64,000 bases of DNA from an uncultured Bdellovibrionales bacterium (GCA_964605525.1 CAZSCV010000003.1:4227-68226), one strand, 5' to 3'; numbered from the stretch's first letter, positions 19,313 through 57,526 are shown. The notes: generated by a model not told the origin, from the letters alone. A program made the numbers and translations.

Positions 19313-19400
19313 GGAGAGTTCGCATAGCGGTCTAGTGCGCACGCTTGGAAAGCGTGTGTGTCGAAAGGCACCGAGGGTTCAAATCCCTCACTCTCCGCCA
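19313..19400 (+). tRNA. tRNA-Ser(GGA), class II with a long variable arm, CCA encoded
   Basis: Acceptor GGAGAGT/ACTCTCC, anticodon stem CACGC/GCGTG with loop TTGGAAA, variable arm GTGTGTCGAAAGGCACC, T-arm GAGGG-TTCAAAT-CCCTC. Confidence 0.85.
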
Positions 19401-56122: not shown

Positions 56123-56413
56123 TCAAACTGCTTTTTCCTTTGCTGGTTTTGAAGTATTTTCTTTAAAATAATGTCGCAGTTGTTTTTTGAGATATGTTCG
56201 ACCGGAACCACCCTTGAGAAATTTTTCTCGTCCGACCGCATCAGCTTTATTGAGATATGCTTCGTAATAAATTAATTTCCAATTTTTCTTCAAAGAAGTT
56301 GTTCTGCATCCATATCCTCTTTGATGATCATTAACTCTGGTTTTCAAATCATTAGTATATCCAATATACCAAGAATTATCATTTTGACACTCTAATAAAT
56401 AGGCGTAATACAT
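56123..56413 (-). CDS. GIY-YIG nuclease family protein (short, stand-alone)
   Basis: MYYAYLLECQ...WYIGYTNDLKTRVNDHQ. It is a paralog of 18943-19227. Confidence 0.8.
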   Translation of the reverse strand: MYYAYLLECQNDNSWYIGYTNDLKTRVNDHQRGYGCRTTSLKKNWKLIYYEAYLNKADAVGREKFLKGGSGRTYLKKQLRHYFKENTSKPAKEKAV

Positions 56414-56566
56414 GATTTTAAATTAGTGAATTATGTTTTAATTATACAGTAAAAAAAGACCTGTCGCGCCACGAAAAATGGCTTCGCCATCTCGTGGCCA
56501 CGAAAAACTTACAAAAAAGGTGGAGTTATATAGTTTTGTAAAATATGGCGGCGCCACGAGATGAAA

Positions 56567-56598
56567 AAAAGACTATCCCGTCAGGGTAGTCTTTTTTG
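56567..56598 (-). terminator. hairpin terminator immediately 3' of the split tRNA
   Basis: AAAGACTA-TCCCGTCAGGG-TAGTCTTTTTT. Confidence 0.6.
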
Positions 56599-56648
56599 AG
56601 TTTTTCGTGGCTCCGACGGTAGGATTCGAACCTACGACCAAGTGATTA

Positions 56649-57211
56649 CACTCTTGGCAAGTGGACTATATCATTCTCTCATAATTTTATAACAATGAGA
56701 GATTGGGCGCTTTTTGGAAGATTATTGTTGGGACTCACTTCCTAGTCTCTACACCTTTCCCGAGAATTAAAACCCGTCGGGACTTGGCTCGGTATTAGAG
56801 TGGCTCTCCTTCACCGAATTCACCCAATTTTTCGATCAGAGTCACCTCTGAAAGCTGCCTAGCATGGACTTCTATGTGACAATTACTGCATAATAAAATG
56901 CATTTGTCTAACTCAGATTTTACTCGATCCCATGACCGAGTATATCCTTTCTCTGAGACACCGAAATCTTTTGCTGCAGGTTCCAAATGATGAAAAGCAA
57001 GAGCGTTTTCACATTTGTTGTATCCGCATATTTGACAAGCACCTCCTTTATATTGGAGAGATTTCTTCTTGATATCCTTTCTTCTTTTATCAACAAAAAA
57101 TTTGCTTTTGCATTGCGGACTACAGAACCTGCGCCGTGGTTTTACATTTTTTGTACAAATTTTCCAAGCACATTTCATATGCTATATTATACAAAAATAT
57201 AAGCCAAATTG
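56649..57211 (-). mobile_element. candidate self-splicing (group I-like) intron or invasive insertion in tRNA-Asn, carrying an HNH endonuclease ORF
   Basis: The 5' exon ends in U and the insertion ends in G. TTGGC near the 5' end is complementary to GCCAA near the 3' end. There is an internal 8-bp hairpin (TCTCTCAT...ATGAGAGA) and a same-strand ORF. Confidence 0.45.
56795..57178 (-). CDS. HNH endonuclease
   Basis: CxxC...CQICGYNKC...AFHHLEP...CSNCH gives the HNH zinc-finger nuclease motifs; 127 aa. Confidence 0.8.
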   Translation of the reverse strand: MKCAWKICTKNVKPRRRFCSPQCKSKFFVDKRRKDIKKKSLQYKGGACQICGYNKCENALAFHHLEPAAKDFGVSEKGYTRSWDRVKSELDKCILLCSNCHIEVHARQLSEVTLIEKLGEFGEGEPL

Positions 57212-57526
57212 ACAGTCACCTGCGCTACCACTGCGCCACGTCGGAATATATTCTATTTTTAAACGACACAATCCCATTATATAGAAAAAGAAAAATAAAT
57301 CAAGGGTTTGTATTGGAAAAGCGTATCGTGGATAATTCTTGATATTTTTTGAAACAAAATAAATATCCAAGCAGTAATAATAAAAAGCAATGGATTAATG
57401 GGTGATGTTTTGCAAATAATTTGTTTTTTATATATAAAATCTTAACTTTCGGCTGTAATTCAGCCGACGGAAAATAAGCAATCTGACAAATTTCAATATA
57501 TTTTAATCATTAATTCACACAAAAAT

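Follow-up and report, generated by a model that had tools for sequence, protein, structure and literature searches.

A tRNA-Asn(GUU) gene divided between anticodon positions 35 and 36 by a probable mobile group I intron with an HNH endonuclease gene in its P1 loop

The stretch of DNA analysed here (the window, 64,000 nucleotides), which belongs to a bacterium of the candidate phyla radiation, carries on its minus strand a tRNA-Asn(GUU) gene in two pieces. The 5′ exon (57245-57212, 34 nt, TCCGACGTGGCGCAGTGGTAGCGCAGGTGACTGT) covers tRNA positions 1-35 and ends in CTGT, that is, in C32, U33, G34 and U35, whereas the 3′ exon (56648-56608, 41 nt, TAATCACTTGGTCGTAGGTTCGAATCCTACCGTCGGAGCCA) covers positions 36-76, begins with TAA (U36, A37 and A38), has G73 as discriminator and finishes with an encoded CCA (56610-56608). 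ARAGORN recognizes the joined exons as a tRNA-Asn(gtt) of 75 bases with a standard cloverleaf, an acceptor stem TCCGACG/CGTCGGA, a discriminator G, the anticodon loop CTGTTAA and the T-loop TTCGAAT; the 75-nt tRNA-Asn that an earlier note on this DNA had assembled from the two minus-strand segments is thus correct to the base. An insert of 563 nt (57211-56649, minus strand) separates anticodon positions 35 and 36. The junction CUGU/UAA is unique, in agreement with the 35/36 position given in that note, and, C being its first and G its last nucleotide, the intron has no boundary that can slide. The last nucleotide of the 5′ exon is U35 and the last nucleotide of the intron is G 56649, so that the terminal U and G previously read at these two boundaries are both present.

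Signals expected of an independent gene flank the tRNA. A candidate sigma-70 promoter (57276-57303, minus strand; TTGATT, 16-nt spacer, TATAAT), a pattern match only, with a score of 10/12 in a consensus scan, ends 30 nt upstream of tRNA position 1. On the other side, a terminator scan and the sequence itself place a terminator hairpin between A and T runs, usable in both directions (56565-56597, minus strand), which begins 11 nt past the CCA. The tRNA-Asn and its intron were both missed by default ARAGORN and by a whole-window Rfam scan with gathering thresholds and default filters. The sole tRNA reported by these standard tools in the 64-kb window is a tRNA-Ser(GGA) on the plus strand (19313-19400).

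A pattern scan with one genome per species returned 256 loci encoding a relative of the HNH protein of the insert, and the best 80 of these 256 were fetched. In 76 of these best 80 loci, the HNH homologue lies within a tRNA-Asn(GUU) split at 35/36 with the same CUGU/...G/UAA boundaries; the anticodon stems vary among hosts and remain complementary. The recurrence of the same split in 76/80 related loci excludes chance as its origin. The other four loci (L009, L045, L067 and L075) gave no intron-containing tRNA call. Could the boundaries differ, so that the gene encodes another tRNA? ARAGORN, when allowed to search for introns, located the split tRNA at exactly c[56608,57245] with a wrong boundary and called it Gly(tcc) i(33,548), and for many relatives it proposed a Thr(tgt) with an intron at 33/34. 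We consider this alternative to have practically no chance of being right: the Asn solution alone combines, in all 76 loci, a tRNA length of 75 nt, a loop of 7 nt, U as the nucleotide preceding the intron and G as the final intron nucleotide, the two-base shift is a documented artefact of the tool, and the 35/36 junction has been sequenced in spliced products (PMC13011429). The ARAGORN boundary calls (Gly(tcc) for the window; Thr, Asp, Tyr, His or Ser for relatives) were dropped after all U...G boundary pairs had been enumerated, which led to Asn 35/36. The apparent presence of the family in Tyr, His and Asp tRNAs within the 80 loci was an artefact of the same calls.

The insert (56649-57211, minus strand; first nucleotide C, last nucleotide omega-G 56649) is identified as a group I intron by a match to the Rfam model, by covariation of its core and by homology to an intron spliced in vitro, and its earlier description as a candidate of this class is thereby upheld. 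The search with the Intron_gpI covariance model (RF00028), already suggested in the earlier note, recovered the ribozyme core at 59.6 bits against a gathering threshold of 50 (E = 2.3e-14), over the full model (1-253) and positions 56877-56643 of the minus strand, a match obtained only with region 56400-57500 searched alone. To evaluate the helices, the 3′ 260 nt of 69 distinct related introns were aligned with MAFFT. The helices laid out on the window sequence were paired in 83.3% of the cells of this alignment, as compared with 34.5-39.1% when partners were slid by 1-3 columns, and the covariation score was 0.479 as compared with 0.074-0.111 in the slid controls; none of 500 shuffles (0/500) attained the observed pairing or covariation values.

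Compensatory changes were found in P2, P3, P4, P6, P6a, P8 and P9.0 (all minus strand, as are the coordinates that follow). P2 (56837-56850) is the hairpin CAGAG-GUGA-CUCUG, whose loop is of the GNRA type; 97.9% of its cells are paired and 5/5 pairs covary. P3 (56828-56821 with 56709-56702) is paired in 85% of cells, P4 (56816-56812 with 56794-56790) in 96%, P6 (56788-56786 with 56755-56753) in 98% and P6a (56782-56777 with 56763-56758) in 92%. In the P8 hairpin (CUCUCAU ... AUGAGAG, 56676-56701), 6/7 pairs are changed on both sides and the outer pairs are well supported, while P9.0 (CAC/GUG, 56663-56661 with 56651-56649), which includes the omega-G, is paired in 100% of cells with 2/3 pairs covarying. 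P7, where group I introns as a rule bind guanosine, is formed by GACUA (56747-56743) and UAGUC (56668-56664), which sit inside the conserved motifs GAUAUAGUCC and AGAGACUA; its 5/5 pairs are invariant in the 69 sequences. P5 (56807-56804 with 56800-56797) and the P7.1 hairpin (56742-56716, between P7 and P3′) were laid out on the window sequence; both vary in length and are poorly aligned by MAFFT.

One or more hairpins between P7 and P3′ are a feature of subgroup IA, of which the window intron is a candidate member. The window has one (56742-56716) and most relatives have two, in a region where the MAFFT alignment is poor. By host group, two are present in most Patescibacteria copies and one in the window clade, in the Nitrospira copies and in L050, and six loci with Omnitrophota or Planctomycetia titles (L026, L027, L041, L052, L056 and L074) have nothing between P7 and P3′ (alignment columns 316-396), being devoid of both P7.1 and P7.2. 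Since the number of these hairpins differs among host groups, the peripheral architecture of the intron family varies by host lineage.

The remaining helix, P1, leads to the gene carried by the intron. Its 5′ strand would be the exon sequence C32-U35 (57212-57215, minus strand), paired with an internal guide GCAG (56858-56855), with a U35-G wobble pair at the splice site. This assignment follows from alignments with the validated intron, which has the guide in the same place, and with the intron of a Saccharicenans (Aminicenantes) genome, whose tRNA-Asn (in L012:2029-2797) contains an ORF-less intron of 251 nt at 35/36; in both of these, GCAGC comes after a P1 loop that is short. When the window intron is aligned with that of L012, its ORF body falls between the first few intron nucleotides and GCAGC. 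This placement of the ORF and the complementarity of GCAG to C32-U35 indicate that GCAG is the guide, that P1 is a long-range pairing and that the HNH gene lies in the P1 loop, which is about 350 nt long in the window. GCAGC is at least 90% conserved among the 69 introns and is always immediately upstream of P2; by eye, UUAC precedes GCAG in many relatives. P1 comprises only 4 bp in the window, where A31 faces C, as compared with 6 bp in the validated intron. A P10 pairing, sought by eye, amounts to at most one U-G pair in the window and nothing consistent among the relatives. GCAU and GUA, two candidates for the guide in the 33 nt that precede the ATG, were ruled out, as the alignment with the ORF-less relative puts the guide downstream of the ORF body.

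The P1 loop contains a gene for a predicted HNH homing endonuclease of 127 aa (57178-56795, minus strand), and the HNH ORF of this size noticed earlier on the strand of the tRNA is indeed there. The protein matches PHROG 2255, ‘HNH endonuclease’ (E = 9e-27); the Pfam HNH family PF01844 gave 17 bits, under its cut-off of 21.4, an NCBIfam search returned nothing useful, and a search of solved structures produced weak matches only, namely McrA and a group II maturase (endonuclease domain). The motifs CxxC, HH, N and CxxCH, which comprise the catalytic residues and the zinc-binding cysteine pairs, are all present: seven positions (C48, C51, H63, H64, C97, C100, H101) do not vary among 35 homologues, and conservation of N99 is at least 90%. 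More than 400 homologues of the protein were found, and an identical 127-aa protein is in the database under ‘Parcubacteria group bacterium Athens0714_25’. The HNH motif stops at about residue 105 and the guide lies downstream of this domain. From about residue 106, the last 20 or so codons (ARQLSEVTLIEKLGEFGEGEPL) coincide with ribozyme sequence, namely the guide, P2, P3, P4 and P5, and the stop codon (56797-56795) falls partly within the 3′ strand of P5 (56800-56797). The frame continues in several homologues to ...KGVETR, which is translated AAGGUGUAGAGACUAGG. Folding of the ribozyme could be hindered by the long P1 loop, or by translation of the ORF tail through P1 to P5.

The HNH gene probably has its own promoter within the intron and a leaderless mRNA, to judge from the sequence preceding its ATG. 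A candidate internal promoter (57186-57215, minus strand; CTGTCA, 18-nt spacer, TATAAT; 10/12 in the consensus scan) has its TATAAT (57191-57186) at a distance of 7 nt from the HNH start codon, and its CTGTCA, which resembles a -35 box, extends across the splice junction; before this ATG, a Shine-Dalgarno motif is absent. A perfect TATAAT occurs 6-10 nt before the start codon in 28/75 related introns, often as TGGTATAAT or TGCTATAAT.

The two ends of the intron are themselves complementary. TTGGC (57207-57203) and GCCAA (56658-56654), already pointed out in the earlier note, are part of a covarying helix specific to the window clade, formed by UUUGGC (intron nucleotides 4-9; 57203-57208, minus strand) and GCCAAG in the loop closed by P9.0 (56653-56658, minus strand). 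Both strands change together in 9/10 clade members, the exception being L083, with compensatory pairs such as ACUAAUU/AAUUAGU, GCUAACU/AGUUAGC, GGCUAAA/UUUAGCC, UUUGACUUG/CGAGUCAAG and others. The window clade has no P9 hairpin, whereas other members of the family have a P9 with a GNRA loop at this place. This covarying helix of 6-9 bp could tether the splice sites across the P1 loop of about 350 nt.

Introns of this kind were recently described by Nakagawa et al. (mSystems, 2026; PMC13011429; bioRxiv July 2025), who reported subgroup IA introns at 35/36 of tRNA-Asn and of tRNA-Asp in Patescibacteria, four of the tRNA-Asn introns carrying HNH genes. In their work, the tRNA-Asn intron of GCA_016700035.1 and a tRNA-Asp intron spliced precisely at 35/36 in vitro, the product was sequenced, and an omega-G-to-C mutant was blocked. 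The same study notes that ARAGORN mis-calls such introns (as Thr 33/34 and others) and gives 33/34, 34/35 and 36/37 as the usual sites of bacterial tRNA introns. Of the usual sites listed in the earlier note, 33/34 and 34/35 therefore stand, and 37/38, at which no intron is known, has to be replaced by 36/37 (PMC13011429). The 35/36 position was rightly called unusual there with regard to the classical literature, and has since been published as a hallmark of Patescibacteria.

Sequence and structure establish that the window intron belongs to this Patescibacteria tRNA-Asn 35/36 family: its ribozyme (56860-56649) and the GCA_016700035.1 intron (Table S3 of PMC13011429) are identical at 127/198 positions (64%) and have the same guide and common motifs (GGCAGC at the guide, GGGUGAAUU, AGCCAAG, AGAGACUAG, AGCGCCC and GAUAGUCC). 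The P7.1 loop, GUGAG(U)CCCAACAAUAAU, is nearly identical in the two. Host phylum, tRNA, insertion site, the U before the intron and the G at its end are likewise as in the published introns. The differences are that the P1 loop of the GCA_016700035.1 intron has 5 nt where the window has the HNH ORF, that the window clade has the end-joining helix in place of P9, and that the window copy comes from a draft genome, outside the published set of complete genomes.

Better-known group I introns resemble that of the window in some respects only. The introns of Azoarcus tRNA-Ile(CAU) and cyanobacterial tRNA-Leu(UAA) are self-splicing members of subgroup IC3 without P7.1/P7.2 and usually without an ORF. 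They too interrupt the anticodon loop of a bacterial tRNA, but at 36/37 and 34/35, respectively; their core motifs (GCCAAG, AAGGUGUAGAGACUAG, GAUAUAGUC) are similar to those of the window family, and the GNRA loops on P2 and P9 of most relatives of the window intron are a further likeness. The phage T4 td, nrdB and sunY introns belong to subgroup IA and have a homing-endonuclease gene in a peripheral loop with its own intron promoter. The window intron shares with them the peripheral position of the endonuclease gene, the internal promoter (here a candidate) and an ORF that adjoins the core. In contrast, the T4 introns interrupt protein-coding genes and not a tRNA, their ORFs are in P6 or P9 loops and not in L1, and their endonucleases are of the GIY-YIG type (I-TevI, I-TevII) or defective HNH-like (I-TevIII) and not HNH.

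Taken together, we put at roughly 90% the probability that a mobile group I intron here interrupts, between U35 and U36, a tRNA-Asn(GUU) gene that stands alone and has a promoter-like site and a terminator of its own. The splicing chemistry of the window copy, as we infer it, would begin with the pairing of exon nucleotides C32-U35 to the guide GCAG (56858-56855) in the precursor, forming P1 with the U35-G wobble at the splice site. Folding of the core (P3-P8) would follow, and an external guanosine bound in P7 would attack after U35. Next, the guanosine site would be taken by the terminal G 56649, which P9.0 holds, and the freed 3′-OH of U35 would attack after G 56649, ligating CUGU to UAA to give the mature tRNA-Asn.

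One could instead imagine a dead tRNA-Asn gene containing a decayed, non-splicing mobile element, the cell using another tRNA-Asn copy. The short P1, the absence of P9 and a near-identical copy (L001) without the 29-nt P7.1 hairpin would fit with decay, and the scope of the tRNA search was the 64-kb window of the genome. Nevertheless, we hold this to be very unlikely, since both exons are intact and canonical, every core motif and helix is present with the RF00028 threshold passed, the HNH ORF is uninterrupted and retains the invariant residues, and promoter and terminator signals are in place. Moreover, 76 species genomes share the arrangement and its helices covary, a signature of selection for splicing, and the published survey finds intron-less duplicates with the same anticodon to be rare (PMC13011429).

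An intron that splices but needs a protein helper in the window clade, such as the HNH protein in the role of a maturase or a chaperone of the host, appears rather improbable as well. It would account for a P1 of just 4 bp with a loop of about 350 nt and for the lack of the P9 GNRA tetraloop contact, in place of which there is the end-joining helix. However, the covariation of this helix looks like a compensation achieved by RNA only and the core is otherwise complete; in addition, we know of no maturase activity in the HNH family of the window, which also counts against a helper. In favour of one, the in vitro tests that have been described concern only GCA_016700035.1 and GCA_001029755.1, and the GCA_016700035.1 intron is ORF-less and of 234 nt (PMC13011429).

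Group I introns at 35/36 of tRNA-Asn are an already described kind, validated in vitro in close relatives. Since earlier publications have both raised and tested the points concerning annotation and biology, the window locus confirms a known phenomenon and does not constitute a discovery. As default ARAGORN and the whole-window Rfam scan miss the gene, the genome that carries it seems to be without a tRNA-Asn; a tRNA-Asn missed in this way lowers completeness estimates of genomes of the candidate phyla radiation. If this gene is the sole tRNA-Asn, an essential tRNA of a streamlined genome would depend on RNA self-splicing. The locus adds hypotheses on the folding and spread of endonuclease-bearing tRNA introns, raised by the ORF in L1, the candidate internal promoter, the end helix, an identical copy in a diverged species and the HNH copies beyond Patescibacteria. 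Three features of the HNH-bearing clade of the window go beyond the published work, and we lean slightly towards the view that all three hold: the replacement of P9 by the end helix, an HNH gene with its own -10 box and a leaderless mRNA, and an element still moving between species with HNH copies in Nitrospira and Omnitrophota.

The HNH enzyme presumably cuts intron-less tRNA-Asn genes, and repair would then copy the intron into them (homing). An indirect sign of mobility is found in L001, another Moraniibacteriota species, which has zero substitutions relative to the window from 57250 to 56610, over 636 nt. The flanking genes are 79-88% identical, and divergence resumes directly outside the tRNA. 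An identical tRNA and intron in a diverged species suggests recent transfer or homing. The sole difference within the tRNA and intron is a 29-nt indel that removes P7.1 (window 56716-56745; L001:2930-2940), attributable either to the recent loss of the hairpin from an element that was itself transferred recently or to an artefact of assembly; given this copy without P7.1, some intron copies may be decaying.

HNH-bearing 35/36 IA introns were published in Patescibacteria only (PMC13011429), whereas here HNH-bearing 35/36 introns were also found, by record title, in Nitrospira/Nitrospiraceae and Omnitrophota. Among the best 80 loci, 11 have Nitrospira/Nitrospiraceae titles and 5 Omnitrophota titles, with a few in Aminicenantes, Planctomycetia and Bacteroidota; these host counts rest on record titles, and some titles, ‘uncultured Gammaproteobacteria’ or ‘Bdellovibrionales’, look unreliable. 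One locus with such an unreliable-looking title (L002) is 89% identical to the window over the tRNA and intron. The GC content of the intron generally tracks that of the host (about 0.55 in Nitrospira loci, for example), which suggests long residence. In the Saccharicenans locus, a free-standing HNH homologue (L012, ATG 2505 to stop 2797) lies about 150 nt downstream of the ORF-less intron and outside it, an arrangement that resembles the phage free-standing endonucleases mobilizing ORF-less introns.

The surroundings of the tRNA-Asn gene in the window also deserve description. Just past its 3′ end, the segment 54001-56000 has a G+C content of 48.8%, as compared with about 37% in the rest of the window, and contains two minus-strand ORFs of 453 aa (55908-54547) and 174 aa (54528-54004), neither of which had a match in a Pfam search. 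Comparison of L001 with the window gave no similarity downstream of the tRNA. The segment may be foreign DNA inserted beside the tRNA; no second copy of the tRNA 3′ end, of the kind that would form an island boundary repeat, is present in the 64-kb window. Directly downstream of the tRNA-Asn terminator lies a gene of 96 aa for a GIY-YIG protein (56123-56413, minus strand; Pfam PF01541, E = 4e-15), and in another locus (L082:492-743) an 83-aa GIY-YIG gene abuts the 5′ end of a homologous intron-containing tRNA-Asn. This association may be a coincidence, such genes being common in these genomes. Finally, between the tRNA terminator and the GIY-YIG gene of the window (56470-56560, minus strand), there are three copies of a TCGTGGC motif (CTCGTGGCGC, TTCGTGGCCA and TTCGTGGCGC).
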